Under the pieces are notes generated by a model. That model was given only the letters and a program-made list of their open reading frames with translations, did not search any database and was not told the origin of the DNA. From NCBI GenBank assembly GCA_965262615.1, contig OZ253545.1, forward strand, positions 1,248,001 to 1,312,000: a stretch of DNA of 64,000 nucleotides, given 5' to 3'. This stretch comes from Alphaproteobacteria bacterium. Its GTDB lineage: Bacteria; Pseudomonadota; Alphaproteobacteria; GM7ARS4; G965262615. The number at the start of each line of letters is the position of its first letter. The stretch's first letter is position 1. The translations under genes and the position numbers were made by a program. Below are positions 1,786 through 43,640 of this stretch, piece after piece.

Positions 1786-1786
1786 A

Positions 1787-8304: not shown

Positions 8305-8311
8305 AGCAACA

Positions 8312-9070: not shown

Positions 9071-9073
9071 GCA

Positions 9074-9760: not shown

Positions 9761-9764
9761 CCCA

Positions 9765-12700
9765 TCAGAAAAACAATTGCAGCGTGCCACTGTGACTTTG
9801 CGCTGCGCCACCGCCCATGCCAAAAATTCCCTGATAATTGAGATGCCCCGTCACTTCCTGTCCCAGCGATAGGGTCACGCCCACGCCCACATCAAAAAAT
9901 ATGGGGCTTCCCTCATCTTGATAAGAGACATCCACCGCCTCGCCAGAGGCTGTCGTCAACTGACTCTCCACCTCAATCTCTTGTCCCGTGACAAGATAAG
10001 TCATGCCCAGAGTGACCTGAGGCAGAAACACATTATTTCCTGCACCAGCACCGTATGCCATTCCCATGTCCACCGCTCCCCTCAAGCTGGCATAGGTGTG
10101 AGAGGCATCCTGCACATTCAATGACGCATCCAAATCAAGCCCATTGACACCTTTCTGTTGCAATGATTCCGATGTCCCTGCCAACAACACCTGCATGATG
10201 GATGCCGAAAAAGAAGGCTCAATATAATCATCAGCCGACCAGCCATAACGATACGATCCCGCACCATGCACCCCCACAAAGCCCACTGAAGGCGACGACT
10301 CATAAAAATCGCCAAAAACCTGACGCTGCACCTGATACAAATTGTAGCCTCCGGCAATACCCATCCCCAGCCGATAGCCTCGCTGTTGCGTCATGTGATA
10401 CTCGGAGAGGTGAACTGATGACGCAAAAGTCAATCTGTGTCCGCTGGCATCACTGTCGCCGCCTTCGTTGGTGTGATTAACATAGGAATAATTGCCGCCC
10501 AAGCTGACAAAAAGATCAGGACGCAATGCCACATCCCACATGGCTTCCAAGCCAACGGGTGTGTGTTCCGTAAAGCCAATGGCAGCCTCACTGTTACTGC
10601 GCGTGAGCATTGAACTGGAGATGGCACTGCGCGCACACATCACCACCCCATTTTGCTTCTTCAACCACGACAAACGCTTCTCCTGCCCCGCAAAAGCACT
10701 CACATCGCCACATGAGGGTTTCATCACGACTCGGCTGAAATTCTGCTCGGCAAACCAATTGGCTTGCACCAACGAGGCATAAATCGTCCCCGCCAATGAC
10801 GATAAGTCATTGCCATACACATCCAACCTCTTTTCGGCATCTTCCAAGCGACCATTGTCGGTGACCCGCGCCTCCAAATAAGTATAAAGACTTTCCAGAA
10901 AATCATACAACGAGTCGGAAAGAGAGGGGCTTTCTGACAAGCGATTGAGAGAACGAGCAATGTGCGTCTCACGCTCCTTGAGGTCACTGATGCCATCGCC
11001 GTCGCGATCCCCCAGCAGTAAAAAATCAAAACTGTTCATGTTCTCCAGCGCGAAATTGAGTCCTTGAGATTCATCCAGTGCGCCACTGAGTCGCCCCCGA
11101 TACTGTCTGCCATCTTTGGTGATGAAGCGAATGGATTGCACCCATCGCTTCAAAATATCAAGACGACCCTCGGTCACGGTATTGCCCGCTTGATTGGTGA
11201 TGACCACCGCCCTTGCCGCCTTGAGAAATGGCTCGGTGCTGGCAAATGACAATCGCCGTGTCGCCTGTCCGCCAAAAAATCGCTCAACATCGGTGAGATA
11301 AACCTTTGTGAATGGCAAGCGTCCGTCATCATTGAGCTCCATCGTCACAGTGGTATCGCTCATGGTGATGCCTTGCACCGTTTGGTTAGCCAGTGCGATG
11401 TTGCCACTGTTCATGTAAATGTCCATGGTTGCGCCCTGCCTGATGTGCCAATCTTCCAGCGAGACAAAGGGCACATCCTTCACCGCCACCGAACGGCTTC
11501 CCAGAATCATCTCGCCATGACTGATGAGGCGATCGCGCCCGTCACCAAAATTCATGACACCCGAAGATGTGGTGAGGGTTGTGCTTTGTCCAATGGTGAC
11601 GGTGTCATTGCCGCCGCCAAGCGTGATGCGCCCCATGACACTGCCGCCGTTAATGGTCATGGTGATGTTGCCTGAAAAGGTGGAATTGATGATTTCATTC
11701 GCTGTGACCGTGCCCGATGTCAAGTTGATGGTGGCGGCGGTGGTGGATGAGCCGCCCGTCAAAGCGATCGCCGCGCCACTGCCCACATTGATATTGCCCG
11801 AATTGGTGATGGTGACCGTGCCAGAGCCGCCGTGATTGACCAAAATCCCCCGATGCCCTGTTCCGCAATTGCTTGAGCAGCTAGAGATAAAGCCGATGGT
11901 TGTTCCACTATTATTGTTTACGCTCACATTGCCCGTTCCCGCCGATGTTGCCTCAATGCCGCGCAAGCCGTTACGATAGGGCGCGCCCGCAAACACCAAA
12001 TTACCGCCATTCGTGATGGTGACACCCACAGACGACTTCACATAAAGAGCCGCTTTGCCTGCCCCCCGCACCTGAACATCATGCTTGGTGGCAGAGGCGG
12101 TCTGATTATTGACCGTCACACTTCCCGTTACCCGAGAACCTGCCATCGTTCCATCAATCGTGATGCCATGTCCTGCGGAATTGACCCCATTGATGACACC
12201 GCTCATGTTACGCAATTCCACCGTCAAATCGCCGTTGTAATGAGCGTTTTTGCTCAGGTCGTCTCTGTCGGTGATGCTGGCAAAAAAGCGATCCATGTTT
12301 AATCCCTCACCGCGCTCGGCGGCATCATTGGCAGACCCTTCACACAGCATCAAACTGCTGGCTGCCACAAAGCGACAATTCAAAGTGGTGGGATTTGCCC
12401 CCGAATTCAAATTGCTCCATGTCATGGTGATATGACCGCCACTCACCGCAAGGGTGATGGTATCGGCGCGCAGCAATCGTCCTGAAGCGTTATACATTTT
12501 GATGCGAGCGTCATTGGGAAAAATAGACACGGTTTTGTTGAGCCCTCGCAAAACCGCATCCGTGGCACTCGCCGTGCTGCCAGACAATAAATTAAACGGC
12601 GCAGCAAGGGTTTGATGTCCCGATGAATCCAAAGAAAAATCCGATGGCAAATAGACTCGCAATTCGTCCAGCAATGCCAGAGTGATGGTCGCCCCACTGC

Positions 12701-15700
12701 CAATCGCCACCGCCCTGAACAATTGATTGCCTGCGCCCGCCGCCGTGTTGCGCGTCAAATACAGTTGCAGCGTGCTCCCTGCATTGAGGTTGAAGTTCTC
12801 CAAGCCACTGAGCATCACGCCATCCGAACCACTGGTGGCATTTCCCATAATCAGAGTGCCATTGTTATTCACCGTGAGGCTATCTGTTCCACCGCCGAAG
12901 GCAGATGTGCCGTTTGTCAGCGTCATTGTTCCGCCATTCACGGTGACGGTGTCGCTGCCGCCGCCTGTGGTGATGCGTCCCGTTGCCGTGCCGCCAGCCA
13001 TGGTCATGGTGACATTGCCCGAAAAGTCCGAGTTGATGATTTCATTCGCCGTGACCGTGCCTGATGTGAAATTAATTGTTGCGGTGTCATTGGACGCGCC
13101 ACCCGTGAGAGACACCGCCGCACCTGAAACATTAATATTTCCCGTGTTGGCAACCATCACAGCTGCCGTTGCCGTTCCAGCTTCCACACGGATACCGTGT
13201 GCCGCCGTGCCAGAACCCGTGAGATTGATTACGCCTGCATTGCTCACACTTACTGTTCCTGAGCCAGCGTGATTCACCAAAATCCCCCGATGACTCGTGC
13301 CACAATTGGATGAACAATCAGTAGCAAAGCCGATGGTTGTTCCCGTATTATTGTTTATGCTCACATTTCCTGTGCCTGCTGAAATCGCCTCAATGCCCCG
13401 CAGTCCAGAATTGTGGGTATTGTCAGAAAGAGGCTTAAAAACCAATGATGCCGCATTATTGATGGTGACACCTATTGCCGACTTCACATACAGAGCCGCC
13501 TTGTTTGCTCCACGCACCAACACATTGTTCTTTGTGCCTGTGGTTTGATGATTGACCGTCATTGTGCCACTCACAAACGACCCATCCAGAGTGCCATCCA
13601 AAGTAATGCCGTGGTCGTCACCACTGTTATTGATTACTCCTCCCAAGTCAAACAAGGTGACTGTCAAATTACCCAGATGATTGCCACTGACAAACGGACG
13701 ACTCGCAACATTAAGATGGGCTTGTCTGAATAGGCGTCCCATTTGCATGCCGTTTGCGCGATCGCTATCGCTGGTGTTGGCATCGGCGACACACACCAGA
13801 TTATTGACACTATAGTTGGAAGAACAATCAAATCCCGACTCCTCAAGAACAATGGACAGCTGTGACCATGCCAGCTGCAACAGATTGCCACTGACCGAAA
13901 GCGTAAAGACGGCATTCCATTGCTGCGACCCCGAAAAAAGCTGCAAACGACTCGCCAATAGCTGCAGCATCTCCGCCTGAGTGGGAACAGTTCCCGATGG
14001 TGTGGCACGCTCAATGCCGCCTGTGCTCCAGATGGTAAACGCCGTTTGCGTGGCATGGGTTCTTTGGCTGATCGTCCCTGACGGCAAATTAATATTGATA
14101 AATGGCGCATCGTTGCCATTGCGAGTGGCATAAAATCTCACCTTATAGCTGGGAGCGGTGCTGGGGGCGGTGCTGGTCAAGCCATTGAGTCCCAAAACAA
14201 CCGTAGAGTTCGCCCGCACATTGAAATAATTCAAACCACTGATGGTGAGTGACTTCAAGGCTTGATTGCTGCTGGCTTGTCCCAAACGCACCGTGCCGTA
14301 ATTAGTGATGACACTGTCGGAAGCATTGTCGCGATCAAAATTATATGTGCCACCGCCATTGAGGGTGAGGATGCCATAATTGGTGAGGGTGTTTGTGCCG
14401 CCGCCCAAATCAAGACTGGTGAGAGAGGCACGGGGTGCGGTGGCATCGGTATAATTGGTGTTCGCCGCGCCAATGGTGATGGTATCGTTGCCGTCACCAA
14501 CGCTCATGCCGCCTGAGATTTGATTGCCACTGCCGCCCCCCGTATGGGTGAAAGTGACGGCGGCGTTTGCCCTATTATTGGAATCAACGGGCTTGAGATG
14601 GATGATATCGCCTCCTGCGCGCACACCGCCTGTATTGGCAATGGTGATGGCGGCGGTGGTGCTGCCCACATCCAGATAGAATGCGTGCGAGCCACTGTGC
14701 GTTCCCACATCAATGACCCCAACGCCGCTATTGATGGTGATGACCCCACTGCCCGCCCGTTTGACAAAAATCCCCCGCGTGTTATTGCCAAACGATGATG
14801 CGCCACTGACATAGCCAATTGTGCCATTGGCGGTGGTGATGGCAATGGCATCATTGCCAGTGCTGATGGACTCGGCATAAATTCCCACAAGGCGATTGAG
14901 AGTCGTGCCTGATGTTTGCCCCGGTGTGGTCATGCGAATTTCATGATTATTGGCAATGGTGATGGCGAGTGCTTTTTGCGAGCGGGCATAAATGGCGGCA
15001 GCCCCCACATCGCCGCTCACGGTTGTTGCCGATGAGCCAAAAACATACATGTGCCTTGCCTGACCGGCATTATAGTTAAAGGTCAAATCCCCCGTGACGG
15101 CACTGCCAGGGGATGTGCCGTCCACAATGATGCCATGCCCCGAATGAGTCGCCGTTGCTCCATAATTGATGGAATACTGATTTTGCGCCACATTGATGAG
15201 CTGTGGCAGCGACAGCGTCAAATCACCACTGTGGGTGCCATCCGCCAATGATTGACCCACGGCGGCAAACATGCGTCCCAGATTAAGCCCTCCTTGCAGC
15301 TCGGCAATGGCGGCGGCGGAGGCGGTGGTTGCCTCACAGGTGAGGGCATTGCCCACCAAGCGACAGGTCAGAGCCGATGCGTCATAATGAAAGCGCATAT
15401 CGCTCCACGACAGGGTGAGGTCTTGATAGCCCGCCACAGACGAATTGACCGCCGTCAAAGAAAAGTTCGCCCGCACTCCAAGACTGCCTTTGGGCGCATC
15501 ACTGGCGAATAACACATCATCATCCAACTGGTCGCCCATGGCGGTCAGCAGCGCACCCAATGACGCACGATTGCTGCCAGAACCCAGCGCAACCGATGAC
15601 ACACGCCACAAAACAAAACTTTGATTGCCACTCTGCAAGGCAAAAGTCGCAGGCGTATGCACAGTGATGGTGGGCACGGCAAGAGACGAATCAATTAATT

Positions 15701-18700
15701 GCAAGGCAAAATCATGACGGCGCGTGTTGTCAGCCAGATTCGTTCCCGAGCCTTGCAGATAAAAATGAAGACGGCTCTGAGGATGCCAGCGCATGACATC
15801 CAAGCCGCTCAGTGAGATATCATTGCTGACAACGCCCCTGCCTCCCATATGGAGCGTGCCGTAATGTTCAAAATTCGCCACCACATTGCCCGTTCCTGTG
15901 GCGTGATAGATGGCGTTGGAGCTGACAATGGTGCCGCGATTGACAATATCCACCGTGTGATTGTGCGCCCCCCCCACAACATAAAACGCCGCATTGCGAT
16001 TGGCGTTGTCGGCAAAGTTTCCCATCACATCAATGACGGTGTCAGAGCCGATTTCCACATCAATATCACTGACGGCACGGGAGGCATCCACATAGATGGC
16101 ATAATGACCATTGCCGCGATTGGCACATCCTTTGCTGGTTTGGGTGCAGGCGTGGGTGTCGGCAAAGCCGATGCGAGCGACATCCTTATTGCGATCATCG
16201 GTGCGAATCACCACCTTGCCACCCGCCGTGCTCTCCACATAAATGGCGGCGGTGTTGTTGTAGAAATTCGTGCCATTGTGAGAGCCAAAAAGCAGCTCAA
16301 GAGCCGTTCCCGCCTGTGCCGAGCCAAGACGCACATCCACATCCATTCCATGACGCACCCGAACGATGGATTCAATGGTGCTGTCACTGTCTCCTCGCAC
16401 AACCAATTGAGAAATCGCACCCTGCCGATTATTCACCGCGCTGTTTTGTCCGATGCGAATGGCAAGGTCACCCATGACCAATGACCCCAACGCATCCCCA
16501 TCAAAAAACAGGGCATCGTTATAAATCATGGCACTTTGATTATTGGCAGACGCATCAATGCGGGTGATGGCAATGGCGGCATCGGCAAAAATAATGTGTC
16601 TGTTATTGCCACTGACATTGCGATAGGTGAACGCTTCTTCTAAATCAAAGCGCGATGCGCTGGTGATGGTGCAGCTGAGCGCGGCGGAGCATTGGGTGTT
16701 GGTGGCGGTGGGCGTGGCTTTCCACTGTAATTGCAAAACCGCCCCACCCGAGGTGTGATTCCATTGAAAGGCATAAATTCTGCCACTGATGGCAACATTG
16801 CTTGAAATGGATGAATCTCTGGTGGCAAACCCTCGCACCTGACGCTCCGTGATGCCACTGAAGCTGAGTCCATTGCTGCCCAACACGGGAAAACGATAGA
16901 GATCAATGGTGGCGGCGGCGGTGGTGTCGCTGGCGGCAAAAACAAGGTCAAAACTGGGTGCAGCAGAAGATGTGCCGTAGAGAATATGCCGCCCACCGCT
17001 CATATCCACAAAGCAATAGGCATTGGCGGCGCAGCTTGTTCCCTCGCCTTTTTTCACATAGAGCCGTAGGGTGCTGGTGGCACGATAATGAAAAGTCTCC
17101 AAAGCCGTCACGGTGACATCATGAGACGACCCCGAAGAGCCTCCTCGCACCCATGTTCCTGCCAGATCAAAAGCATCCGTGCCGCCGCCAAAATTCATAG
17201 CACCCGACGATGTGGTGAGGGTTGCGCTTTGTCCAATGGTGACGGTGTCACTGCCGCCGCCAAGAGTGATGCGTCCCGAAGCACTGCCACCGTTAATGGT
17301 GACTGTCACATTACCCGCAAAATCTGAGTTAATAATCTCATTCGCTGTCACCGTTCCTGATGTGAAATTAATAGTGGCGGTGTCGGCAGCTTCCCCGCCC
17401 GTCAAAGATACCGCCGCGCCCGACACATTAATTGTTCCCGTGTTGCTGATGGTCACCGCTTCGGTCGCCGTCCCCGCCTCCACACGAATGCCATGTGATG
17501 CCGTGCCAGACCCCGTGAGATTGATGCTTCCTGCATTGCTCACGCTTACTGTTCCTGATCCAGCATGATTCACCAAAATCCCCCGATGCCCTGTTCCGCA
17601 ATTGCTTGAGCAGCTAGAGCTAAAGCCGATGGTTGTTCCCGTATTATTGTTTATGCTCACATTTCCTGTGCTCGCCGAAATCGCCTCAATGCCACGAATT
17701 CCATTGTTGTAAGGTGTTCCAGCAAACATCAGATTGCCGCCGTTGGTGATGGTCACGCCCACCGCCGACTTCACATACAGAGCCGCCTTGTTTGTTCCTC
17801 GCACCGACACATCTTGTTTTGTGCCGGTGACATTGAGATTGACGGTGATGCTGCCGGTCACCCGAGATCCGGTTTTACTGCCGTCAATCATGATGGCATG
17901 GTCTGTGCCGTTGGTATTGACCGTCCCCGCCAGATTCAGCAGTGTGAGGGAGAAGTCACCATTGCGCGTGCCGCTTTGCAAAGCATTGACACTGCGGAAA
18001 ATATCGGTGGCATCCATGCCATAGAGAAATTCATCATGGGTGGTGTCACCGCCCGAGCAGGTCACTGTCGCTCCGCTATCATTGGTGATGCAATTCATGG
18101 AGCTTGTGATGATTTGTCTTGTGAGATTTTGCCAAGCGATTTGCAGATTATCCGCCGAGCCCTCAGACAGCGTCACCGTGCCGCTATAGCGAGAGCCATT
18201 GTGGGTGTAGATTCGCACCCGCGCCGCCAGTTCGGCAAAAGTAAGCGTGGATGCCAGTGATAAATCCGTGCCATCAATAAGGGTGAAGGCACTCTCATCG
18301 CCAAGCGTGATGCCACGGGGCAGATAAATGGCAATGATGGGCGCGTCACTGGATGTTGTGCCATTGATGGTGATGGCGGAAGGCAGGGTGAGGGCGATAT
18401 CAAAATTGTTGTTGGTGCGAGTCAAGTAAAGCCGCAAGGAGCTGCCCGCATTGAGGGTGAATGAATTGAGCCCAGTCACGGTGACTCCTTTTGAGCCATT
18501 GGTGGCATCACCCACAATCAGCGTGCCGCCACTATTCACCGTGACGCTATCTGTTCCACCGCCAAATGCCGATGTGCCGTTTGTCAGCGTCATTGTGCCG
18601 CCATTGACCGTGACGGTGTCATTGCCGCCGCCGAGCGTGATACGCCCCATTGCGCTACCGCCACTCATGGTCATGGTGATGTTGCCTGCAAAGCTGGAAT

Positions 18701-36700: not shown

Positions 36701-39700
36701 CACTGGTGAAACTATGAAGAGTCACGGTGAGATTGCCCGAACGCAATCCTTCCGCCGCCAATTCCGACACATCCGCAAACATGCGATCCATCCTCAGACC
36801 GCCAGCCAACTCATCGGCAGAGCCTCCCGTGCAGGTCAGAGTCGGCACACTGTAGGAACAATCCAATGTGCTGGCAGGCACAGACGCAAAAAGACCCGTC
36901 CAGGACACTTGCAAATTCTCACCGTCCTCACGCAAAACAAATCTGCCTCTGTAGGTGACAGCTCCGCGCAACACCTTCACCTTGGCATCCAAGTCAGACA
37001 GACTCGCTATCGTGAGAGAACCACTGCCTGTGTCAATCAAATCAAAAGCCGTGCGGTCGGAAAGATCGTAACTGGCGGGCAGATGAATCTCAATCACGGG
37101 CGCATTGCTACCCGTGCCATTAAAACGAACCGCAGAAGATAACCTAAGAGCATTGAAATCTCTCCCCAAATAAAACCGCACAATGCTGCCGGACTCCGCC
37201 GTGAAGCTCTCCAACCCTCTGATGATGAGATTGCCCGCAGGGCGTGTCCTCATGCCAAAATGCACCGTGCCGCGATTGGTCACAGAGTCAGTGCCAGAGC
37301 CAAAATCAGAAATCAGAGAATCCCAACGCCATGTGCCATTCGCCGCAACGCTCACCGCATCATTGCCACTGCCACTGCGCACCCCGCCTTGGACATTTGC
37401 ACCACCAGCAATGCTCACCGTGCTGTTGCCACCCAAATCTTCACCCCAGTAAATGTATGATGCCGAAACATCCGAGCCACTGGCAAAAGTCACATTGGCA
37501 CTCTTGCCCGAGCCTCCCTCAACCGCAATGGCAATGTTATGGGATTTGATGCTGCCACTGTTGCTGATGGTGGCACTGGCGACAGAGGATGGATGAGACA
37601 ATTCAGCCAAAATCCCCACCATCCTAATGACGCCAATGGTGGCATTCACATTGATGTCGCCACTGTTCACAATACTGATATTCCCCGTGCCGATATGACT
37701 CGCCGCAATGCCACGATGAGCTTGTCCACAACTCACGGTGCAAGCGGCAGAAAAACCAAGAGTGGCAGAAGAATTGTTGGTGACGGTCAGATTGCCCGTT
37801 CCTGTGGCAATGGCGTGAATACCATACAGAGATGACTCATGACGACCAGCATTGCTGCCAAACAGCACATTCGCACCATTGACAACAGTGACGGCGTTTC
37901 TTCCTTTGACATACAACCCCGCCTGACCGCGATGGCGCACTTGCACATCACGCTTTGTGCCGGTGGTTTGATGATTGACCGTCAGACTACCGGTCACTCG
38001 TGAGCCTTCTCGTGCCCCATCAATACGCACGCCGTGTCCCGTGCCATCCGAGTTAATGGTGGTGTCGGTGACATTATTAATGGTGACGGTGAGATCGCCC
38101 GTGTGAACACCGTCTTGCAAAGAGGTGATGTCTTGAAACAAACGCCGAGCATCAATGCCTGTCCCCAACTCGCTGGCATTGCCGCCCGTGCAGGTGAGGG
38201 TGGTGCTGGCAAGACCACAGGTCATGGTGGAGGCGGTATTATTAACCACCGCCATATTGCTCCAGCGCATCGTCAGAGCCGTGGGAATGGCATTGGTGCT
38301 GGTGATGCCCAACTCAACAAAGCCCACATATTCCGTGCCATCAGCGGCAAAAATACGCACCTGAGATGCCAAGTCCGCCAAATCAAAGACGCTATTGGGA
38401 ACAAGAGCGGCGGCACTCAAAAGGGTGAAATAGTTTTGATCGCTAACGCTATACCCAGACGGCAGATACACATGCAATGCGGTGGGGTCTTGTCCCACCG
38501 TGCTATTGACATTCACACGCCCCGACAGAGTCATGGCGGTGTCAAAGACACTGGCGGTGCGACTCAGATAAAGTCCCATGGTGGTATTGGCATTGACGGT
38601 GAATGTCTCCAAACCGGTCACGGTGACTCCCTTTGAGCCATTGCTGGCATCGCCCACAATCAGCGTGCCGCCACTATTCACCGTGAGGCTATCTGTTCCA
38701 CCGCCAAATGCCGATGTGCCATTGGCAAGAGTGAGCGTTCCGCCATTCACCGTCACACTGTCACTGCCTCCTGCCAGAGTGACGCGCCCCGTGGCACTGC
38801 CGCCGCTCACGGTCACGGTGACATCACCCGTAAAGGTGGAATTGATGATTTCACTCGCTGTCACCGTTCCTGATGTGAAATTAATAGTGGCGGTGTCAGC
38901 AGCTTCTCCGCCCGTCAGAGCCACCACCGCACCCTGACCCACATTGATATCTGCCGAATTGGTAATGCTCACACTGCCACTCCCACCGTGATTCACCAGT
39001 ATCCCCCGATGGTTATCGTTACACTGAGAAATATCAGGACAGAAGCCGCCAAAACCAATAGCACCAGTGTTGGTGATGCTCACGCTACCCGTCCCCGCCG
39101 AAATAACCTCCATGCCACGCAGTCCACTTCTGAAGGGAGAGCCCACAAACCTCAAACTGCCGCCATTGGTCACGCTCACCCCCATCTGTGATTTCACATA
39201 TAACGCCGCCCTGTTGGTCCCTTGCACCCACACTTCATGTCTCGTCCCTGTGGTTTGATGATTGACCGTCAGATTGCCCGTCACGCGGCTGCCAAGAATC
39301 GTCCCATCCAGTGTGATGCCATGACCCGTTCCCACCGCATTCACAATTGCTCCAAAACTATGAAGAATCACAATCAGCTCGCCCGAACGCACTCCCCGCC
39401 TCAATAGCGATGGGGAAGAGGCAAACAAACGCCGAAGATCAATACCTTCAGTGACATTACTGTCAGAACGACCCGTACAGGTGAGGGTCGGCACACTGTA
39501 AGAACAACTCAGTGTGCTATTGGTCGTGGGAGCATAAAGATCCTCAAATGAAACCTGCAAATTCTCACCGTCTTCACTCAAGGTCACAATCCCACTGAGG
39601 TTGATTCCGCCCCGCCTAATCGACACTTTGGCATTCAAAGCCGCCAGACTCGCTATCGTGAGAGAACCACTCCCTGTGTCAATCAAATCAAAAGCCGCAC

Positions 39701-42700: not shown

Positions 42701-43640
42701 CATTGACGAGGGTGAGATGACCGCCACTCAGTGTCACAGTGTCATTGCCGTTGGAAATATCAAAAAGCCCAGAGACGCTGCCGCCACTGATGACGGCGTT
42801 CACTCTGCCGCCAAAATTAGAATTGATAATTCGTGAAGCGGTGACGCGTCCATTAGCAAAGGTAACATTGGCGACACTGTTGTCAGCACCGCCTTCCAAA
42901 GTGACGGCGTTTGCTCCTGCCACATTGATATTGCCCGAATTGGTGACACTCAATGGTCCTCCGACACGCTGAATCAGCCAAATGGCGCTGTGATCAGAGC
43001 CGCAGTTGGCGGTGCAATTGGAAGCAAATCCGATGTTGCCGCTGTTGTTGATATTAATAACGAGGCTGGCGAGCGTTTCGGCGTGAATCCCTCGCAGACC
43101 GTTATTGTATCCGCCGCCACTTTTGGTGTCAAAGACGAGATTTGCGCTGTTATTGATATTCACATCTGAGGAGTTTCTCACATACAAAGCGGCTTGCGAT
43201 TCCCCCCGCACCTGCACATCTCTCTTGGTGGTGCTGTTGGTCTGATGATTGAGTGTGATGCCGAGCCTGATTCGTGTGCTCTGCAGCGAGCCATCAATGG
43301 TGATGCCATGCCCTGTGCCTGTGGTGTTGACGGTGGTATCAAAATCATTGAGATTGATGATGGCATTATCGGAGATGCCGGTGACGGATGCGGCGGAGAA
43401 AATAGTGCCGAGTGTGAGTCCGCCTGCGAGTTGAGCGGCGGTTCCGCCTGTGCAGGTGATGGTGTTATTGTTGTTGGCACACGCCAGAGCGGCGAGCGTG
43501 ACCGCATCGCCAGACGATGACCGCGCCTCAACAGACGCCGTCCCTAGAAGAAGCAAAAATGCAAACAAATGCACTAAAGACCACCTCCCCCACAACTCAC
43601 ACGACACCGTGCCCGCCTCACGACAGGACAAAGATGACAC
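9765..43640 (-). CDS. Giant modular autotransporter (type Va) adhesin-like protein, 11,291 aa, 24 passenger modules
   Basis: Uninterrupted 33.9-kb ORF. GTG start with signal peptide (..LLLLGTASVEA), G/T/N/S-rich beta-helix-like passenger, then a helical linker and ~300-aa barrel (IEPSF, PQVTLG, FDVGVGV, LNYQG, HSGTLQLFF-COOH). Confidence 0.9.
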   Translation of the reverse strand: MSSLSCREAGTVSCELWGRWSLVHLFAFLLLLGTASVEARSSSGDAVTLAALACANNNNTITCTGGTAAQLAGGLTLGTIFSAASVTGISDNAIINLNDFDTTVNTTGTGHGITIDGSLQSTRIRLGITLNHQTNSTTKRDVQVRGESQAALYVRNSSDVNINNSANLVFDTKSGGGYNNGLRGIHAETLASLVININNSGNIGFASNCTANCGSDHSAIWLIQRVGGPLSVTNSGNINVAGANAVTLEGGADNSVANVTFANGRVTASRIINSNFGGRVNAVISGGSVSGLFDISNGNDTVTLSGGHLTLVNGESNFRGGNDTLTLNGGLLTLGDATNGSKGTRFSNLQTINVNVGATMRLYLTRTGTAFDSALTFSGNIALNGAVGEEPASLLLYLPSGYTIGNEGYFTLMSGLTVSTNLALRLADLESRVLIFSADDNTEYVGAIQMVASPLSNRTNLRIRWSDMVAISNTASSMDCSFASNTLTCTGGSVAELNTGINARLLFKDITALQGGTHTGNLTINIDSVTDTTINATGNRHGMTIDGTMEGSRVTGNLTVNNQTSSNATRNVQVRGGNRAALYVKSAAGITISNSGDLVFSGTNYNSGLSGIHAISTGTGGVTITNTKAIGFASNCTANCGSNHRGIWVDQRVSGVVSISNSGNINVGNGDAIRLDGGTFFNFSTIALSAGSVTASRIINSNFVGSVFVTMSGGSASGLLNFGAGNDTMTVSGGTLTIANGTSNFGSGNDSMTLNGGRVTIANGTLNFGNGTDSFTVNDGTWLTLGDVTNGSKGVTFSGLETLTLNADSTTQLYLSRTGNAFDFALTLSGRININGEAGKDPTALYVHLPSGYTIGNQSYFVLINAISVASNAAFDLTDMAQRVRIFSSDGNTEYEGTIELQSSFNALRIRWSNMVGFNNTPSTMNCSFASNTLTCTGGDFSEIGRGINARRLFQDIASLRDGIHDGDLTVVINRVGENVVNFVGLGHGVTIDGERNGSRVTGNLTVNHQTTGTTTNVQVRHRGRAALYVKGGSGVTVANSANLVLAAERDGQYELFLEGIHAIATGTGTLSVTNNSAATIGFSSACTATCGANHRGIVASHTGTGNITIANGGTIQLNHTTQATGMVGILVLMPRTSASASVTITNTATINVPDVAVSVQGGSGKTATVNFNSGSRVTSQSIYASTNFGGNSAVNISSNAIVTGGITGGSGNETVTIASGGLWNMTQSSTLGGGSDSVIHNGTLVWGNATAGSDGVTLSGLETFTVNAGATLRLYLDGDFNAVTLSSAVRFNGTSDAPVIEINLPASYDLSDRAAFDLIDTGSGSLTIASLAALNAKVSIRRGGINLSGIVTLSEDGENLQVSFEDLYAPTTNSTLSCSYSVPTLTCTGRSDSNVTEGIDLRRLFASSPSLLRRGVRSGELIVILHSFGAIVNAVGTGHGITLDGTILGSRVTGNLTVNHQTTGTRHEVWVQGTNRAALYVKSQMGVSVTNGGSLRFVGSPFRSGLRGMEVISAGTGSVSITNTGAIGFGGFCPDISQCNDNHRGILVNHGGSGSVSITNSADINVGQGAVVALTGGEAADTATINFTSGTVTASEIINSTFTGDVTVTVSGGSATGRVTLAGGSDSVTVNGGTLTLANGTSAFGGGTDSLTVNSGGTLIVGDASNGSKGVTVTGLETFTVNANTTMGLYLSRTASVFDTAMTLSGRVNVNSTVGQDPTALHVYLPSGYSVSDQNYFTLLSAAALVPNSVFDLADLASQVRIFAADGTEYVGFVELGITSTNAIPTALTMRWSNMAVVNNTASTMTCGLASTTLTCTGGNASELGTGIDARRLFQDITSLQDGVHTGDLTVTINNVTDTTINSDGTGHGVRIDGAREGSRVTGSLTVNHQTTGTKRDVQVRHRGQAGLYVKGRNAVTVVNGANVLFGSNAGRHESSLYGIHAIATGTGNLTVTNNSSATLGFSAACTVSCGQAHRGIAASHIGTGNISIVNSGDINVNATIGVIRMVGILAELSHPSSVASATISNSGSIKSHNIAIAVEGGSGKSANVTFASGSDVSASYIYWGEDLGGNSTVSIAGGANVQGGVRSGSGNDAVSVAANGTWRWDSLISDFGSGTDSVTNRGTVHFGMRTRPAGNLIIRGLESFTAESGSIVRFYLGRDFNALRLSSAVRFNGTGSNAPVIEIHLPASYDLSDRTAFDLIDTGSGSLTIASLSDLDAKVKVLRGAVTYRGRFVLREDGENLQVSWTGLFASVPASTLDCSYSVPTLTCTGGSADELAGGLRMDRMFADVSELAAEGLRSGNLTVTLHSFTSAVNTSGTGHGITLDGTVAGSRVTGSMTVNHQTTGTKQDVSVRGANKAALYVKSAAGVSVTNGGNLVFAGTPYNNGLRGIEATSAGTGNVTINNSATIGFASTCTTNCGSNHRGILVSHGGSGTVSISNSGDINVGSGAAIALTGGTSSTAATIRLTSGTVTANELINSDFAGNITMTMNGGSATGRITLGSGNDTVTVNGGTLTLANGISAFGGGTDSMTLSGGTLIVGDASNGSKGVTVTGLETFTVNANTTMGLYLSRTASVFDTAMTLSGRVNVNAAVGQDPTALHVYLPSGYSMSDQNYFTLLSAAALVPNSVFDLADLASQVRLFSSDGSTEYVGFIELGVTTTNSIPTALTMRWSNMAVVNNTASTMSCNLASTTLTCTGGNASELNSGINARRLFQDITSLQDGVHTGNLTVTINNVTDTTINSDGTGHGVRIDGAREGSRVTGSLAVNHQTTGTKRTVQVSHRGQAGLYVKGRSGVTVVNGANVQFATNNNRYASSLYGIYAIATGTGNLTVTNNFATTIGFSAACTANCGTNHRGIAASHIGTGDIDIVNAGVIRVSNTVNAVGMVGILAELPSSSATASVSIDNTGIIEARDIAINVVGGTGKTATLSFNNGSRTSALVAYWSQQFGGNSTVNIGSYAVVTGGIMGGTGNESVSVFANGSWTINYNSSFGSGTDSITNRGIMAIGSSTQVSRYISITGLETFTMAANSTLRLYLDSLFGKVDISGTVTFNGSNDRDAPILELFLPAGYDSGSRSAFTLIDASAIVLQSTLTFSELARRLVVRSRDGTVYDGDFTLSRATGGQLQLAWGTIGEALNCRLVGSAITCSGGSASSFEFVGGFDLDDIFRKISSLSSGVFTGDLTVNLGSATESLAATVNTAGTGHGIELDGTVTDSRVTGSMTVNNQTAPATKRDIQVRGTNKAALYVKSAAGVTITNGGNLVFSGTPYNNGLRGIEAISAGTGNVNVTNNSGSQIGFASACTTNCGTSHQGIFINHAGSGTVSITNSGTINLTGSGTAAHGIQVSAGTATEAVTISNTGTINVAGAAMSLTGGASADTATINLTSGTVTASEIINSDFAGNVTVTMNGGNATGRITLGGGNDTVTVNGGTMTLTNGTSAFGGGTDSMTLSGGTLIVGDASNGSKGVTVTGLETFTVNANTTMGLYLSRTGNVFDTAMTLSGRVNVNAAVGQDPTALHVYLPSGYSISDQNYFTLISATALVPNSVFDLADLASQVRIFAADGTEYVGFVELGVTTTNAIPTALTLRWSNMAVVNNTASTMTCALASTTLTCTGGNASELGTGINARRLFQDITSLQDGVHTGNLTVTINNVTDTTINSDGTGHGVRIDGAREGSRVTGSLTVNHQTTGTPRTVQVRHRGQAGLYVKGRNAVTVVNGANLMFATNAGRHESSLYGIHAIATGTGNLTVTNNSSATLGFSAACTVSCGTSHRGIAASHIGTGNISIVNSGDINVNATIGVSRMVGILAELSHPSSVASATISNSGSISSRNIAIAVEGGSGKSANVTFSSGSDVSATYIYWGEDLGGNSTVRIAGGANVQGGVRSGSGNDAVSVAANGTWRWDSLISDFGSGTDSVTNRGTVHFGMRTRPAGNLIIRGLESFTAESGSTVRFYLGRDFNAVKLSSAVRFNGTGSNAPVIEIHLPASYDLSDRTAFDLIDTGSGSLTIASLSDLDARVKVLRGAVTYRGRFVLREDGENLQVSWTGLFASVAASTLDCSYSVPTLTCTGGSASELSGGLTMDRMFADVSELAAEGLRSGNLTVTLHSFTSAVNTSGTGHGITLDGTVAGSQVTGSMTVNNQTASATKRDIQVRGANKAALYVKSSVGVTINNAASLVFKPRSSNTHSSELRGIEAISAGTGSVSITNSATIGFATNCTTNCGSNHRGILVNHGGSGTVSISNSGNINVGSGAAIALTGGSSTTVATIGLTSGTVTASEIINSSFAGNITMTMNGGSVSGRITLGGGNDTVTVNGGTLTLANGTSAFGGGTDSVTVNNNGTLIMGNSTNGSKGVTVTGLETFTVNANTTMGLYLSRTASVFDTAMTLSGRVNVNAAVGQDPTALHVYLPSGYSISDQNYFTLLSAAALVPNSVFDLADLASQVRLFSSDGSTEYVGFIELGVTTTNSIPTALTMSWSNMAVVNNTASTMSCALASTTLTCTGGNASELGTGIKARRLFQDVASLQDGVHTGNLTVTINNVTDTTINSDGTGHGVRIDGAREGSRVSGNLTVNHQTTGTKRTVQVSHRGQAGLYVKGRNAVTVTNGANVLFGTNAGRHESSLYGIHAIATGTGDLTVTNNFATTIGFSAACTANCGANHRGIVASHIGTGDIDIVNAGVIRVTNTVNAVGMVGILAELPSSSAAASVSIDNTGIIEARDIAINVVGGTGKTATIRFNGGSRVSSLMAYWSGQFGGNSTVTIASNAIVTGGITGGTGNETVTVASGGTWNINYSSSFGGGTDSITNRGIMAIGSSTQVSRYIGITGLETFTLAANSTLRLYLDSLFGKVDISGTVTFNGSSDRNAPILELFLPAGYDSGSRSAFTLIDASAIVLQSTLTFSELARRLIVRSHDGTVYDGDFTLSRATGGQLQLAWGTIGEALNCRLVGSAITCSGGSASSFEFVGGFDLDDIFRKISSLSSGVFTGDLTVNLGSATESLAATVNTAGTGHGIELDGTVTDSRVTGSMTVNNQTAPATKRDIQVRGANKAALYVKSAVGVTITNGGNLVFAGTPYNNGLRGIHGISAGTGSVSINNSATIGFASNCTTNCGSNHRGILVNHGGSGTVSITNSGNINVGSGAAVSLTGGSSTTAATIGLTSGTVTASEIINSSFAGNITMTMNGGGATGRITLGSGNDTVTVSGGTMTLTNGTSAFGGGTDSMTLSGGTLIMGNATNGSKGVTVTGLETFTVNANTTMGLYLSRTGSVFDTALTLSGRVNVNAAVGQDPTALHVYLPSGYSVADQNYFTLLSATALVPNSVFDLADLASQVRIFAADGTEYVGFVELGVTSTNAIPTALTLRWSNMAVVNNTASTMTCALASTTLTCTGGNASELGTGIKARRLFQDVASLQDGVHTGNLTVTINNVTDTTINSGGTGHGVRIDGAREGSRVSGSLTVNHQTTGTKRDVQVRHRGQAGLYVKGRSGVTVVNGANVQFATNNNRYASSLYGIYAIATGTGDLTVTNNFATTIGFSAACTANCGTNHRGIAASHIGTGDIDIVNAGVIRVSNTVNAVGMVGILAELPSSSAAASVSIVNTGTIEARDIAVNVVGGSGKTATIRFNGGSRVSSLMAYWSQQFGGNSTVGIASNATVTGGIMGGTGNETVTVASGGTWNINYSSSFGGGTDSITNRGIMAIGSSTQVSRYIGITGLETFTLAANSTLRLYLDSLFGKVDISGTVTFNGSNDRNAPILELFLPAGYTSGSRSAFTLIDASAIVLQSTLTFSELARRLVVRSHDGTVYDGDFTLSRATGGQLQLAWGTIGEALNCRLVSTAITCSGGSASSFEFVGGFDLDDIFRKISSLSSGVFTGNLTVNFGSATASLAATVNTAGTGHGIELDGTVTDSRVTGSMTVNNQTAPATKRDIQVRGANKAALYVKSSVGVSITNGGNLVFAGTPYNNGLRGIHGISAGTGNVSITNSATIGFATNCTTNCGSNHRGILVNHGGSGSVSITNSGNINVGSGAAIALTGGSSTTAATINLTSGTVTANEIINSTFSGNITMTMSGGSAMGRITLGGGNDTVTVNGGTLTLANGISAFGGGTDSLTVNNNGTLIMGNSTNGSKGVTVTGLETFTVNANTTMGLYLSRTASVFDTAMTLSGRVNVNAAVGQDPTALHVYLPSGYSISDQNYFTLLSATALVPNSVFDLADLASQVRIFAADGTEYVGFVELGVTSTNAIPTALTMRWSNMAVVNNTASTMSCNLASTTLTCTGGNASELNSGINARRLFQDITSLQDGVHTGNLTVTINNVTDTTINSGGTGHGVRIDGAREGSRVSGSLTVNHQTTGTKRTVRVSHRGQAGLYVKGRNAVTVTNGANVLFATNNSQYASSLYGIHAIATGTGDLTVTNNFATTIGFSAACTANCGANHRGIAASHIGTGDIDIVNAGVIRVSNTVNAVGMVGILAELPSSSAAASVSIDNTGIIEARDIAINVVGGTGKTATLSFNNGSRTSALIAYWSQQFGGNSTVNIGSYAIVTGGIMGGTGNESVSVFANGSWTINYNSSFGGGTDSITNRGIMAIGSSTQVSRYISITGLETFTLAANSTLRLYLDSLFGKVDISGTVTFNGSNDRNAPILELFLPAGYTSGSRSAFTLIDASAIVLQSTLTFSELARRLVVRSHDGTVYDGDFTLSRATGGQLQLAWGTIGEALNCRLVSTAITCSGGSASSFEFVDGFDLDDIFRKIDSLSSGVFTGDLTVNFGSSTASLAATVNTAGTGHGIELDGTVTDSRVTGSMTVNNQTASATKRDIQVRGTNKAALYVKSAAGVSVTNGGNLVFSGTPYNNGLRGIEAISAGTGSVSISNSATIGFATNCTTNCGTGHRGILVNHAGSGTVSITNSGTINLTGSGTASHGIQVSAGTATEAVTISNTGTINVAGAAVSLTGGEAADTATIRLTSGTVTASEIINSSFAGNITMTMNGGSATGRITLAGGSDSVTVSGGTMTLTNGTSAFGGGTDSMTLSGGTLIMGNSTNGSKGVTVTGLETFTVNANTTMGLYLSRTASVFDTAMTLSGRVNVNSTVGQDPTALHVYLPSGYSISDQNYFTLLSATAFVPNSVFDLADLASQVRLFSSDGSTEYVGFIELGVTSTNAIPTALTMRWSNMAVVNTTASTMTCALASTTLTCTGGNVSELNSGINARRLFQDITSLQDGVHTGNLTVTINNVTDTTINSDGTGHGVRIDGAREGSRVSGNLTVNHQTTGTKRDVQVRHRGQAGLYVKGRNAVTVVNGANVQFATNAGRHESSLYGIHAIATGTGNLTVTNNSSATLGFSATCTVSCGQAHRGIAASHIGTGNISIVNSGDINVNATIGVIRMVGILAELSHPSSVASATISNSGSINSRNIAIAVEGGSGKSANVTFASGSDVSATYIYWGEDLGGNSTVSIAGGANVQGGVRSGGGNDAVSVAANGTWRWDSLISDFGSGTDSVTNRGTVHFGMRTRSAGNLIIRGLESFTAESGSTVRFYLGRDFNAVKLSSAVRFNGTGSNAPVIEIHLPASYDLSDRTAFDLIDTGSGSLTIANLADLDARVKVLRGAVTYRGRFVLREDGENLQVSWTGLFASVAASTLDCSYSVPTLTCTGGSASELSGGLTMDRMFADVSELAAEGLRSGNLTVTLHSFTSAVNTSGTGHGITLDGTVAGSQVTGSLTVNHQTTGTRRDVSVRGANKAALYVKSAAGVTITNGGNLVFAGTPYNNGLRGIEAISAGTGSMTITNSATIGFATNCTTNCGSNHRGILVNHAGSGTVSITNSGTINLTGSGTDAHGIRVDAGTATAAVTISNTGTINVAGAAMSLTGGASADTATINLTSGTVTASEIINSDFSGNVTVTINGGSVLGRITLGGGSDTVTVNGGTMTLTNGTSAFGSGTDSLTVNNNGTLIMGNATNGSDGVTISGLENFNLNANSRLRLYMDSNFNALTIAGTVTLAGGAATTPIIELHLPSGYVVADKNAFAIIDSTTLTLSGITLAHLQERVVIQKGIVTYEGTITLTEVSEELRIAWSDLIARLYCTRTGNTIDCMGGTDSDFASGLTLATIFGKVNVTGSSLAGNLILNLNNLGAHVNATGTGHGITLDGTVTGSRVTGNITLNHQTTTAANARKEVQVRGANQAALYVKSSVGVSINNAASLVFKSGTGNTHSSGLRGIEAISAGTGSVSITNSATIGFATNCTTNCGTSHRGIFVNHAGSGTVSITNSGTINLTSSGTAAHGIQVSAGTATEAMTISNTGTINVAGAAVSLTGGASADTATINLTSGTVTASEIINSSFAGNITMTMSGGSAMGRITLGGGNDTVTVNGGTMTLTNGTSAFGGGTDSVTVNSGGTLIVGDATNGSKGVTVTGLNSFTLNAGSSLRLYLTRTNNNFDIALTLPSAITINGTTSSDAPIIAIYLPRGITLGDESAFTLIDGTDLSLASTLTFAELAARVRIYTHNGSRYSGTVTLSEGSADNLQIAWQNLTRQIITSSMNCITNDSGATVTCSGGDTTHDEFLYGMDATDIFRSVNALQSGTRNGDFSLTLLNLAGTVNTNGTDHAIMIDGSKTGSRVTGSITVNLNVTGTKQDVSVRGTNKAALYVKSAVGVTITNGGNLMFAGTPYNNGIRGIEAISASTGNVSINNNTGTTIGFSSSCSSNCGTGHRGILVNHAGSGTVSVSNAGSINLTGSGTASHGIRVEAGTATEAVTISNTGTINVSGAAVSLTGGEAADTATINFTSGTVTANEIINSDFAGNVTVTINGGSASGRITLGGGSDTVTIGQSATLTTSSGAMNFGGGTDAFDLAGTWVRGGSSGSSHDVTVTALETFHYRATSTLRLYVKKGEGTSCAANAYCFVDMSGGRHILYGTSSAAPSFDLVFAASDTTAAATIDLYRFPVLGSNGLSFSGITERQVRGFATRDSSISSNVAISGRIYAFQWNHTSGGAVLQLQWKATPTATNTQCSAALSCTITSASRFDLEEAFTYRNVSGNNRHIIFADAAIAITRIDASANNQSAMIYNDALFFDGDALGSLVMGDLAIRIGQNSAVNNRQGAISQLVVRGDSDSTIESIVRVRHGMDVDVRLGSAQAGTALELLFGSHNGTNFYNNTAAIYVESTAGGKVVIRTDDRNKDVARIGFADTHACTQTSKGCANRGNGHYAIYVDASRAVSDIDVEIGSDTVIDVMGNFADNANRNAAFYVVGGAHNHTVDIVNRGTIVSSNAIYHATGTGNVVANFEHYGTLHMGGRGVVSNDISLSGLDVMRWHPQSRLHFYLQGSGTNLADNTRRHDFALQLIDSSLAVPTITVHTPATFALQSGNQSFVLWRVSSVALGSGSNRASLGALLTAMGDQLDDDVLFASDAPKGSLGVRANFSLTAVNSSVAGYQDLTLSWSDMRFHYDASALTCRLVGNALTCEATTASAAAIAELQGGLNLGRMFAAVGQSLADGTHSGDLTLSLPQLINVAQNQYSINYGATATHSGHGIIVDGTSPGSAVTGDLTFNYNAGQARHMYVFGSSATTVSGDVGAAAIYARSQKALAITIANNHEIRMTTPGQTSGTTLNRLVGIYAESISTGNDAIAITTANGTIGYVSGASSFGNNTRGIFVKRAGSGVITINSGVGVIDVGTHSGSHAFYLDVGSTTAAITIANTGGVRAGGDIIHLKPVDSNNRANAAVTFTHTGGGSGNQISGGMSVGDGNDTITIGAANTNYTDATAPRASLTSLDLGGGTNTLTNYGILTLNGGGTYNFDRDNASDSVITNYGTVRLGQASSNQALKSLTISGLNYFNVRANSTVVLGLNGLTSTAPSTAPSYKVRFYATRNGNDAPFININLPSGTISQRTHATQTAFTIWSTGGIERATPSGTVPTQAEMLQLLASRLQLFSGSQQWNAVFTLSVSGNLLQLAWSQLSIVLEESGFDCSSNYSVNNLVCVADANTSDSDRANGMQMGRLFRQAHLNVASRPFVSGNHLGNLTVTLFDLGGVINNSGDDHGITLDGTLDGSFVSGTMTVNHQTTGTKNNVLVRGANKAALYVKSAIGVTINNAASLVFKPLSDNTHNSGLRGIEAISAGTGNVSINNNTGTTIGFATDCSSNCGTSHRGILVNHAGSGTVSVSNAGVINLTGSGTAAHGIRVEAGTATAAVMVANTGNINVSGAAVSLTGGASNDTATINFTSGTVTANEIINSDFSGNVTMTMAGGTATGRITTGGGSDTVTVNGGTMTLTNGTSAFGGGTDSLTVNNNGTLIMGNATSGSDGVMLSGLENFNLNAGSTLQLYLTRNTAAGAGNQLFRAVAIGSGATITLALLDELRVYLPSDFSLDSSGHQTLAAPFNLLSGSTASATDAVLRGLNKTVSIFPNDARIKMYNASGRLLRADTITLAVSGGHITMTWSNLNSGANPTTLNCRFVAASSLMLCEGSANDAAERGEGLNMDRFFASITDRDDLSKNAHYNGDLTVELRNMSGVINGVNSAGHGITIDGTMAGSRVTGSVTVNNQTASATKHDVQVRGAGKAALYVKSSVGVTITNGGNLVFAGAPYRNGLRGIEATSAGTGNVSVNNNSGTTIGFISSCSSNCGTGHRGILVNHGGSGTVTITNSGNINVGSGAAIALTGGSSTTAATINLTSGTVTANEIINSTFSGNITMTINGGSVMGRITLGGGNDTVTIGQSTTLTTSSGVMNFGDGRDRLISHGEMILGSRSVAVKDVPFVSLEDWHIRQGATMDIYMNSGNIALANQTVQGITMSDTTVTMELNDDGRLPFTKVYLTDVERFFGGQATRRLSFASTEPFLKAARAVVITNQAGNTVTEGRLDILKRWVQSIRFITKDGRQYRGRLSGALDESQGLNFALENMNSFDFLLLGDRDGDGISDLKERETHIARSLNRLSESPSLSDSLYDFLESLYTYLEARVTDNGRLEDAEKRLDVYGNDLSSLAGTIYASLVQANWFAEQNFSRVVMKPSCGDVSAFAGQEKRLSWLKKQNGVVMCARSAISSSMLTRSNSEAAIGFTEHTPVGLEAMWDVALRPDLFVSLGGNYSYVNHTNEGGDSDASGHRLTFASSVHLSEYHMTQQRGYRLGMGIAGGYNLYQVQRQVFGDFYESSPSVGFVGVHGAGSYRYGWSADDYIEPSFSASIMQVLLAGTSESLQQKGVNGLDLDASLNVQDASHTYASLRGAVDMGMAYGAGAGNNVFLPQVTLGMTYLVTGQEIEVESQLTTASGEAVDVSYQDEGSPIFFDVGVGVTLSLGQEVTGHLNYQGIFGMGGGAAQSHSGTLQLFF
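19850..38950 (-). repeat. Near-identical intragenic tandem repeat, seven ~2.65-2.75 kb two-module units
   Basis: Equivalent positions recur at about 22069, 24811, 27463, 30112, 32767, 35512 and 38155 (spacings 2742, 2652, 2649, 2655, 2745, 2643). Boundaries approximate. Confidence 0.92.

Follow-up and report, generated by a model that had tools for sequence, protein, structure and literature searches.

Autotransporters need no external energy source to move their passenger across the outer membrane, and their barrel is the last part to be synthesised, so that a passenger of 11,000 residues must stay export-competent throughout its synthesis. One such giant, BigE, is described from sequence only as a type Va autotransporter of 10,429 residues from a betaproteobacterium, according to Celik 2012 (PMC3419190). 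Its enlargement is ascribed there to eight copies of a ~300-residue passenger segment together with 69-residue repeats; its barrel was grouped with EstA and its passenger was placed with BrkA-like proteins. This was the sole work found in our literature search that names a largest autotransporter. Here we describe a gene of 33.9 kb located in a window of 64,000 nucleotides (positions 1,248,001 to 1,312,000 of contig OZ253545.1, assembly GCA_965262615.1) from the genome of an alphaproteobacterium of the GM7ARS4 lineage. With up to 11,291 residues, its product exceeds the published length of BigE by about 8%, and the known class is extended by it, not broken. We consider it likely that this gene encodes a genuine and selectively maintained type Va autotransporter whose passenger is a giant modular beta-helix fibre.

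The open reading frame (ORF) and its N-terminal signal occupy the following positions of the window, with a slash marking the cleavage motif.

9765..43640, minus strand: whole ORF, 11,291 codons plus the stop at 9765-9767
43524..43640, minus strand: signal-peptide-like N-terminus, residues 1-39, with an n-region Arg, the core LVHLFAFLLLLG and TASVEA/RS

The frame is unbroken from its GTG start, with zero internal stops and no N anywhere in the window. An open frame of this length in DNA of 51-55% G+C cannot have originated by chance, and the next longest frames of the genome are paralogues from the gene's own family. The product has a computed mass of 1,150 kDa and an isoelectric point of 5.9, and is enriched in Gly, Thr, Ser, Ala and Asn. 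Its length is 11,269-11,291 residues depending on the start codon, an uncertainty of at most 22 codons: alternative in-frame GTGs occur at codons 12 and 23, with GAGG and GGAGG located 8-9 nt 5' of them, and the sister-strain fragment P0007 was annotated by its gene caller from codon 23. The hydrophobic core and the cleavage motif are kept with all three candidate starts. The core LVHLFAFLLLLG has a Kyte-Doolittle mean of 2.84 over 11 residues and TASVEA/RSSS comes next, and by eye the N-terminus looks like a Sec signal peptide.

The C-terminal end of the protein carries a candidate translocator, preceded by a helical linker.

9768..10646, minus strand: beta-barrel translocator, residues 10,999-11,291 (PF03797, model and superposition)
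9831-10553, minus strand: PF03797 match in Pfam, within the last ~250 residues
10722..10976, minus strand: four predicted helices before the barrel, residues 10,889-10,973 (predicted local distance difference test score, pLDDT, of 59-83 in the model)
10635..10712, minus strand: loop Cys10977...Cys11002, from the pore/linker helix to strand 1, the two cysteines being 25 residues apart

The family PF03797 (Autotransporter beta-domain) was matched with 32.2 bits by hmmscan and with 36.4 bits in the genome search, above the Pfam cut-off (gathering score) of 26 bits. The protein ends with ...HSGTLQLFF, its final residue being aromatic, and the pattern H-S-x-x-x-x-x-x-F is conserved at the C-terminus in an alignment (A2) that sets the C-terminal 420 residues against eight relatives, half of them paralogues of the same genome and half metagenome proteins. 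We modelled the C-terminal region with AlphaFold2 (pLDDT 75; predicted template modelling score, pTM, 0.76) and compared the barrel to the PDB. The 18 best Foldseek matches listed were all type Va translocators, with EstA at the top (E 3e-13), and included EspP, BAM-EspP complexes, AaaA, NalP, BrkA, AIDA-I and Hbp. Using VIA-align, the model superposed on NalP (1uyn) with Z 26.6 and a root-mean-square deviation of 2.8 Å over 275 of the 279 NalP residues, and on AaaA with Z 29.0; ranks 1-18 were all autotransporters and other 12- to 14-stranded barrels ranked lower (Z of at most 17.6). The C-terminus is therefore predicted to be a NalP-like barrel with a helix in its pore, where the number of 12 strands is taken from the superposition. 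Of the four helices, the one closest to the barrel (model residues 81-102) superposes on the helix that spans the pore in NalP and EspP, and the three additional helices predicted ahead of it are unusual. Cys10977 and Cys11002 are invariant in all nine sequences of A2, and the loop between them was modelled with low confidence. This pair could form a periplasmic disulfide loop, which is not seen in textbook translocators.

These results bear on an earlier note on this DNA, which had described an intact 33.9-kb ORF with a Sec-type signal and a type Va barrel ending in Phe. The single frame without internal stop, the PF03797 score above cut-off and the ending LQLFF all agree with this description; so does the signal (hydrophobic core, n-region Arg and VEA/R), as judged by inspection only. 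Modelling of the C-terminus as a 12-stranded barrel had been set in advance as a test, and the superposition on NalP supports it. The classical type Va identity put forward in the note is also supported by the family score, the modelled barrel and the passenger fold presented below. Overall, every sequence and structural feature of the type Va class that we examined appears to be present in the giant protein.

Between signal and linker, the protein is predicted to be built from a single kind of unit.

11034..43499, minus strand: passenger, 24 modules of ~430-510 residues, residues 48 to 10,869 (profile hidden Markov model, self-BLAST and Cys-pair register)
20796..39524, minus strand: core, modules 4-17, in which types A and B alternate, B with two subtypes (DNA self-BLAST and identity matrix)
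13845..16709, minus strand: modules 21-22, the most divergent, with 24-39% identity to other modules
35598..36878, minus strand: module 6, residues 2255-2681, the modelled unit (AlphaFold2 pLDDT 94.1, pTM 0.92)

The modules (~450 residues) are tiled back to back with no gaps or linkers. A profile hidden Markov model built from an alignment of 34 modules (A1) yielded 26 domain hits that correspond to the 24 modules, two of which were split. The register of the modules is set by two Cys pairs: C-x8-C-T-G-G at the start and C-T-x-N-C-G ~158 residues further on. Near-invariant polar residues (N-x-Q, C-G-x-x-H-x-G-I and D) are also found in every module, whereas module 21 presents neither the C-T-x-N-C-G motif nor any G-x-G-x-D motif. 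Core modules 4-17 are duplicated in 2-module (~2.65 kb) and 4-module (~10.7 kb) registers, and DNA self-BLAST of the giant gene gave offsets of 2,652, ~5,300, 10,686 and 16,083. The A/B core grew by duplications of two and four modules.

In the model, module 6 forms a right-handed beta-helix: a Cys hairpin and a helical cap are found at its N-terminus, and a beta-hairpin caps its C-terminus. Its best VIA-align matches were the passengers of UpaB (Z 20.4, 320 residues across model positions 1-422) and Vag8 (Z 19.5). Foldseek did not match module 6 to any PDB entry at E≤0.001, and its weak list was led by pertactin, Hap and IgA1 protease. We searched Pfam with residues 1-1200 (E≤0.01) and with modules 20-22 and an A-B pair (E≤5) without matching any family in the passenger; Pertactin PF03212, PATR PF12951, AIDA, ESPR PF13018 and AC_1 PF18883 were all absent from the parts scanned, and the sole sub-threshold trace was DUF2807 in module 24 (E 0.011). 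No NCBIfam match was found in the passenger either. Look-alikes in the ESM Atlas, which we treat as leads only, comprised an autotransporter cluster (0.92) and a 'BigA pectate lyase-like' cluster (0.91). Each module is thus predicted with high confidence to be a complete autotransporter-type passenger beta-helix. The module itself appears to be lineage-specific and without a family name, and its modelled fold is a standard one.

The UpaB study reports a helix of 13 turns that is 75 Å long and bears an autochaperone-like C-terminal cap (PMC6488583). On this measure, 24 units standing end to end at ~7.5 nm each would give a fibre of ~180 nm. The earlier note had proposed an unusually long surface filament; a very long fibre, which would be displayed at the surface, is indeed the best reading of the passenger. 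Whether a capsule or host matrix is spanned by it, as the note suggested, is a speculation.

Behind UpaB and Vag8, module 6 matched generic right-handed beta-helices with Z 13-18 (NosD, AlgE4, tailspikes, polygalacturonases and lyases). It is possible to read the passenger as an enzyme array, in which polysaccharide-active (lyase, hydrolase or epimerase-like) or glycan-binding modules would act on glycans of a host or matrix and are perhaps cleaved and released. The scores of AlgE4 (Z 17.5) and of phage tailspike depolymerases, polygalacturonases and polysaccharide lyases (Z 14-17) are in line with such a function, as are the polar residues that repeat nearly invariantly in every module and the pectate lyase-like clusters of the ESM Atlas; moreover, UpaB has a lyase-like glycosaminoglycan groove according to PMC6488583. 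Sharing a beta-helix fold does not imply catalysis, however, and the top two matches, UpaB and Vag8, are non-enzymatic passengers. No enzyme family of Pfam or NCBIfam was matched, even at E up to 5, and no cleavage motif was identified. We know of no precedent for 24 catalytic units in series, and we regard an enzyme array as unlikely.

The 100 cysteines of the protein all fall in 50 tight nearest-neighbour pairs. Of these, 48 belong to the passenger, where the partners stand 4-11 residues apart; the signal region and the linker contribute one pair each. All 48 passenger pairs are conserved in register. Leyton et al. 2011 reportedly found that autotransporter passengers tolerate short disulfide loops only, and loops between partners this close together would be compatible with secretion. 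A second recurrent signature, the motif G-x-G-x-D-x-U-x-U, was counted 28 times where shuffles would give 0.2; A-type modules usually contain two copies, spaced 23 residues apart. It is similar to the turns by which RTX and MpIBP repeats bind Ca2+. The MpIBP fragment 3p4g aligned with the module model with Z 14.8 and 18% identity (VIA-align), and the G-x-G-x-D turns might hypothetically bind Ca2+.

These motifs and the size of the protein are what one would cite for a substrate of a type I secretion system (T1SS) of the LapA/SiiE/MpIBP type, or of two-partner secretion (TPS). The protein, however, starts with a signal-peptide-like segment and ends with the PF03797 barrel. PF00353 (HemolysinCabind) was not matched in the regions scanned, no TPS or haemagglutinin family was found in the first 1,200 residues, and the genome has a single Omp85. 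The flanking genes include neither ATP-binding cassette (ABC) or membrane fusion protein (MFP) genes of a T1SS nor TpsB genes. The probability of either route is close to negligible, and the barrel evidence (PF03797, Foldseek and VIA-align) effectively refutes it. The contrast drawn in the earlier note, that adhesins of this size are typically T1SS substrates, is overstated: BigE is type Va, and the distant matches of our protein search include autotransporter-like proteins of 5,700-6,800 residues, with ...LNW barrel ends in proteins of up to 6,795 residues.

The sequence itself speaks strongly against an over-expanded array. The best internal pair of DNA repeats presents 90.5% identity across 5.8 kb. 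The longest exact repeat is 397 nt long, and 98.2% of the 151-mers are unique within the giant gene. No pair of modules exceeds 96% amino acid identity (276 pairs). For the 23 of these 276 pairs with at least 75% identity, synonymous divergence (dS) is 0.14-0.73 and the ratio of nonsynonymous to synonymous divergence (dN/dS) is 0.13-0.32, although these pairs are non-independent and dS is open to distortion by gene conversion. The modules are thus old and under purifying selection, and purifying selection across the modules argues that the whole array is translated.

Public contigs (Logan) from four runs of two studies, one of the covering runs being labelled marine metagenome, covered 28-30 of the 30 bins of window positions 20001-40000. 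Their pieces (~100-800 nt) are too short to confirm the order or the number of modules. Another run, X6, is labelled sponge metagenome (share 0.13); like X7 and X8, it provides no indication of habitat. Many alternative letters in these contigs indicate co-occurring strains. Some contigs join distant positions, with skips of 2,649-2,672, 5,225 and 16,095 and back-jumps of ~10,680-10,692, the shorter side of the joint being 20-52 nt. Within positions 20001-40000, the joints of runs X1, X3, X4 and X5 lie at multiples of the 2.65-kb two-module period, and some of them recur across runs of the two studies (e.g., 34034>39260 and 22680>38776). They may represent module copy-number variants among strains or chimeric short contigs.

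These joints, seen in four runs, could also be taken as a sign that the length is an assembly error, through over-expansion or collapse of the repeat array or through chimeric joining of strains present together. The co-occurrence of several strains and the lack of an independent full-length copy among our matches point in the same direction. Nevertheless, the joints sit in contigs of a few hundred nucleotides, where repeats and strain mixtures favour chimeras. If the copies were artefacts they would be identical, yet the lowest dS between modules is 0.14 and they differ by ~10% or more in DNA, which argues that the repeats are not assembly copies. The frame is open through every junction, and the source genome is a single contig of 1,542,258 bp with 98.3% completeness and 0.02% contamination. 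We consider an assembly error very improbable. Over-expansion of the repeats had been named in advance as what would undo the earlier note; the repeats proved to be diverged rather than identical.

The giant gene is the last of three tandem paralogues on the same strand, which together make up 3.8% of the genome, and two further paralogues are located elsewhere.

43663..51039, minus strand: upstream paralogue of 2,458 residues, same module family and barrel type
51443..64000, minus strand: second upstream paralogue, same module and barrel type, exiting the window; 5,839 residues in the genome
C1:262949-279587, minus strand: fourth paralogue, broken, with a 5,045-residue passenger frame (264450-279587) and a separate 523-residue barrel ORF
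C1:699873-714365, plus strand: fifth paralogue of 4,830 residues, with a lipoprotein-type N-terminus (…IMLAAC GGGG) in place of a usual signal peptide, and the ending ...EFVLSW

The stop of the 2,458-residue paralogue lies 22 nt ahead of the first GTG of the giant ORF. The five giants contain ~61 modules over 88 kb, or 5.7% of the 1.54-Mb genome. A lipidated passenger in the 4,830-residue paralogue would presumably recall the lipoprotein autotransporters of the NalP/SphB1 type. In the broken paralogue, the passenger frame begins mid-module after a frame change and ends with ...WHSHW, and the linker and barrel follow in another frame as a 523-residue ORF ending with FKMSF.

We searched for this family in other genomes and in public proteins. 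Forty genomes from the same order or class gave no match to a pair of modules or to the C-terminal 550 residues; 18 of these relatives possess PF03797 barrels, in frames of at most 1,996 residues. The module profile matched 247 of 1.84 billion representative proteins at E≤0.001. Matches that span the whole module are limited to about the first 20, and the remainder cover profile positions ~115-330, which correspond to generic helix rungs. Twenty of the top matches, compared with the five giants, are all unnamed metagenome proteins of at most 2,436 residues: 16 of them were 88-98.5% identical to one of the five giants, and the other four presented 85.8, 77.7, 65 and 32% identity. Near-full-length sister-strain copies were found for the 2,458-residue neighbour (P0003 and P0153, of 2,418 and 2,436 residues, with ~89-90% identity). 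The C-terminal 550 residues matched none of the candidates of 302-963 residues. In a scan of JGI metagenomes, the C-terminal query returned six loci, all with 46% identity over 48 residues, that we judged spurious. As far as these searches reach, the module family appears to be confined to one lineage and its close strains. Two of the fragments, P0154 and P0006, derive from different modules. Both close with the out-of-frame tail ...F-CRQHHQ, which follows a short run of T and is found at an equal module position in each. The cause may be an error that recurs in sequencing or assembly, the end of a contig or a site prone to slippage.

The state of the family raises the alternative that the giant gene is decaying or silent in a shrinking genome and is intact only by recent history. 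The paralogue at 264450-279587 is interrupted at its two ends and has its barrel in a separate frame of 523 residues, some public fragments carry frameshift-like tails, and there was no RNA run among the runs listed (which says nothing on expression). The dN/dS of 0.13-0.32 in 23 module pairs, at dS of up to 0.73, is opposed to this view, as are the 33.9 kb free of stops, the 48 passenger Cys pairs in register and the neighbouring paralogue kept near full length, with ~90% identity, in other assemblies. We therefore find decay or silence improbable.

A genuine, selectively maintained type Va autotransporter is the interpretation that we favour, and several points weigh against it besides the limits of the dN/dS comparison given above. 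The barrel family score is modest, the confidence of the barrel model is moderate and DSSP splits this model into 15 strand segments. The Pfam scan of residues 1-1200 (E≤0.01) did not detect the ESPR-type extended signal peptide that is common in very large autotransporters. No full-length counterpart was found: candidates of 5,499-17,499 residues did not match a 9,999-residue reference (region 5000-9999) in a protein collection that is apparently without the source genome's own proteins, and the seven pieces of the giant gene among the 20 compared matches reach at most 1,420 residues. Some sister-strain fragments terminate at one shared module position with what look like frameshifted tails, which could represent broken sister-strain copies or assembly ends. 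One paralogue is broken by frame changes at both ends, which indicates that the family decays. TamB (PF04357) and AsmA (PF05170) were unmatched in the genome, in a low-power test, since TamB also escaped detection in 15 of 20 relatives, among them some with genomes of 4-5 Mb. Finally, function, expression and physical length are deductions only.

Judged from the sequence, the protein would most likely serve a marine, host-associated bacterium with a small genome as a surface fibre or adhesin, or as part of its coat. We infer its export, surface display, fibre length, ratchet folding and adhesive or coat function, and we propose the following mechanism, modelled on the established pathway of autotransporters. 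The protein would be exported by Sec through its N-terminal signal peptide and would transit the periplasm with Skp-type chaperones, where DsbA could close the 48 short disulfide loops of the passenger. The same genome encodes one Omp85/BamA frame (766 residues) with OmpH/Skp adjoining it, and a DsbA homologue. The C-terminal 12-stranded barrel and its pore-spanning helix would then be inserted with the assistance of BamA. The passenger would thread from C- to N-terminus and each ~450-residue module would fold outside as a self-contained capped beta-helix, such that the successive folding of 24 units could drive and rectify export. The fibre would remain anchored by its own barrel and could provide adhesion, or a protective and variable surface coat, in a host-associated marine bacterium. 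The lineage-specific family, with its four paralogues of the giant gene, may expand and contract by unequal recombination in steps of two and four modules.

A bolder combination of these ideas can be envisioned, which we offer as a tentative and rather doubtful possibility: the protein would be the longest type Va autotransporter described, exported by a unit-by-unit ratchet with BamA only, and part of a dominant variable coat. Its building principle would be 24 units that each bear an autochaperone-like cap, two disulfide staples and Ca2+-type G-x-G-x-D turns. Stepwise ratchet folding would allow the ATP-free export of a passenger with a contour length of ~4 µm. Export would rely solely on BamA, in a genome of 1.5 Mb that yielded no match for TamA, TamB or an AsmA-like protein. 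The coat, variable through recombination and serving the recognition or evasion of an animal host, would consist of the five-gene family, which takes up 5.7% of the genome.

On the 3' side of the giant gene we found an rsmD-like gene, a small outer-membrane protein, tldD, methylmalonyl-CoA mutase and msrPQ.

9218-9823, minus strand: rsmD-like methyltransferase ORF, overlapping the last 59 nt of the giant gene if its TTG start is used
8312-9070, minus strand: exported protein of 252 residues ending with ...LGVFYRF (TIGR04565 weak, below cut-off)
1-2995, minus strand: BhcA-like aspartate-glyoxylate aminotransferase, 2-hydroxyacid dehydrogenase and glycerate-kinase-like ORF

The true start of the rsmD-like ORF is probably further in, since the family match starts at residue 29. 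The 252-residue protein, downstream of the giant gene beyond this ORF, resembles a small outer-membrane beta-barrel. The BhcA-like aminotransferase scored 566 bits, under the equivalog cut-off of 650, and the cluster at 1-2995 suggests glyoxylate or glycolate assimilation. Promoter and terminator scans that covered the 400-nt gap 5' of the 2,458-residue gene and the 3' end of the giant gene gave counts no higher than shuffles.

An intact and selectively maintained example of 1.15 MDa would indicate that the autotransport pathway tolerates such cargo. The earlier note had suggested that this protein tests the size limit of Sec/BAM-dependent export: the known limit is stretched by ~8%, and no new limit is defined. 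The protein is longer than BigE, yet it is encoded in a genome of 1.54 Mb with one Omp85 protein. Owing to its strict modularity, the effects on secretion of passenger length, short disulfide loops and unit-by-unit folding could be compared along a natural series. An unusual share of this reduced genome, 5.7%, is devoted to one lineage-specific surface family, which marks its members as prime candidates for contact with the host. This giant leaves the classification of secretion systems unchanged.

Compared to known systems, the translocator resembles those of NalP, EspP, EstA, AaaA and AIDA-I by its predicted 12-stranded barrel, its pore-spanning helix and its aromatic C-terminal residue. It differs from them by its low identity (9-16%) and low family score (32-36 bits), by three additional helices and by a conserved 25-residue Cys-Cys loop before strand 1. 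The modelled module superposes on UpaB of E. coli (6bea) and Vag8 of Bordetella (7akv) over nearly its full length, autochaperone-like C-terminal cap included, although they present only 15-17% identity and no common Pfam family. UpaB and Vag8 consist of a single helix each, whereas 24 are found in series here, each with two conserved short disulfide loops. LapA, SiiE and MpIBP share with the giant protein a comparable size and inferred length, repetitive extender modules and possible Ca2+-binding G-x-G-x-D turns; in contrast to these, it presents no C-terminal T1SS signal, no RTX match and no adjoining ABC/MFP genes, and would use its own barrel as anchor.

Multi-copy and fast-diverging autotransporter families are known as major surface proteins of small genomes in the rickettsial Sca and chlamydial Pmp proteins, which are ~1,000-2,300 residues long and are not known to be built from tandem whole-passenger units; no relation in sequence to them was noticed, in an analysis that made no comparison aimed at them. 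BigE, compared on architecture only, differs by its bacterial class: the giant protein has 24 units of ~450 residues, is 862 residues longer and belongs to a genome of 1.54 Mb. The two are alike in that both are type Va proteins whose giant size appears to come from tandem replication of a whole passenger unit, and EstA, with which the BigE barrel was grouped, is also the top Foldseek match of the barrel described here.

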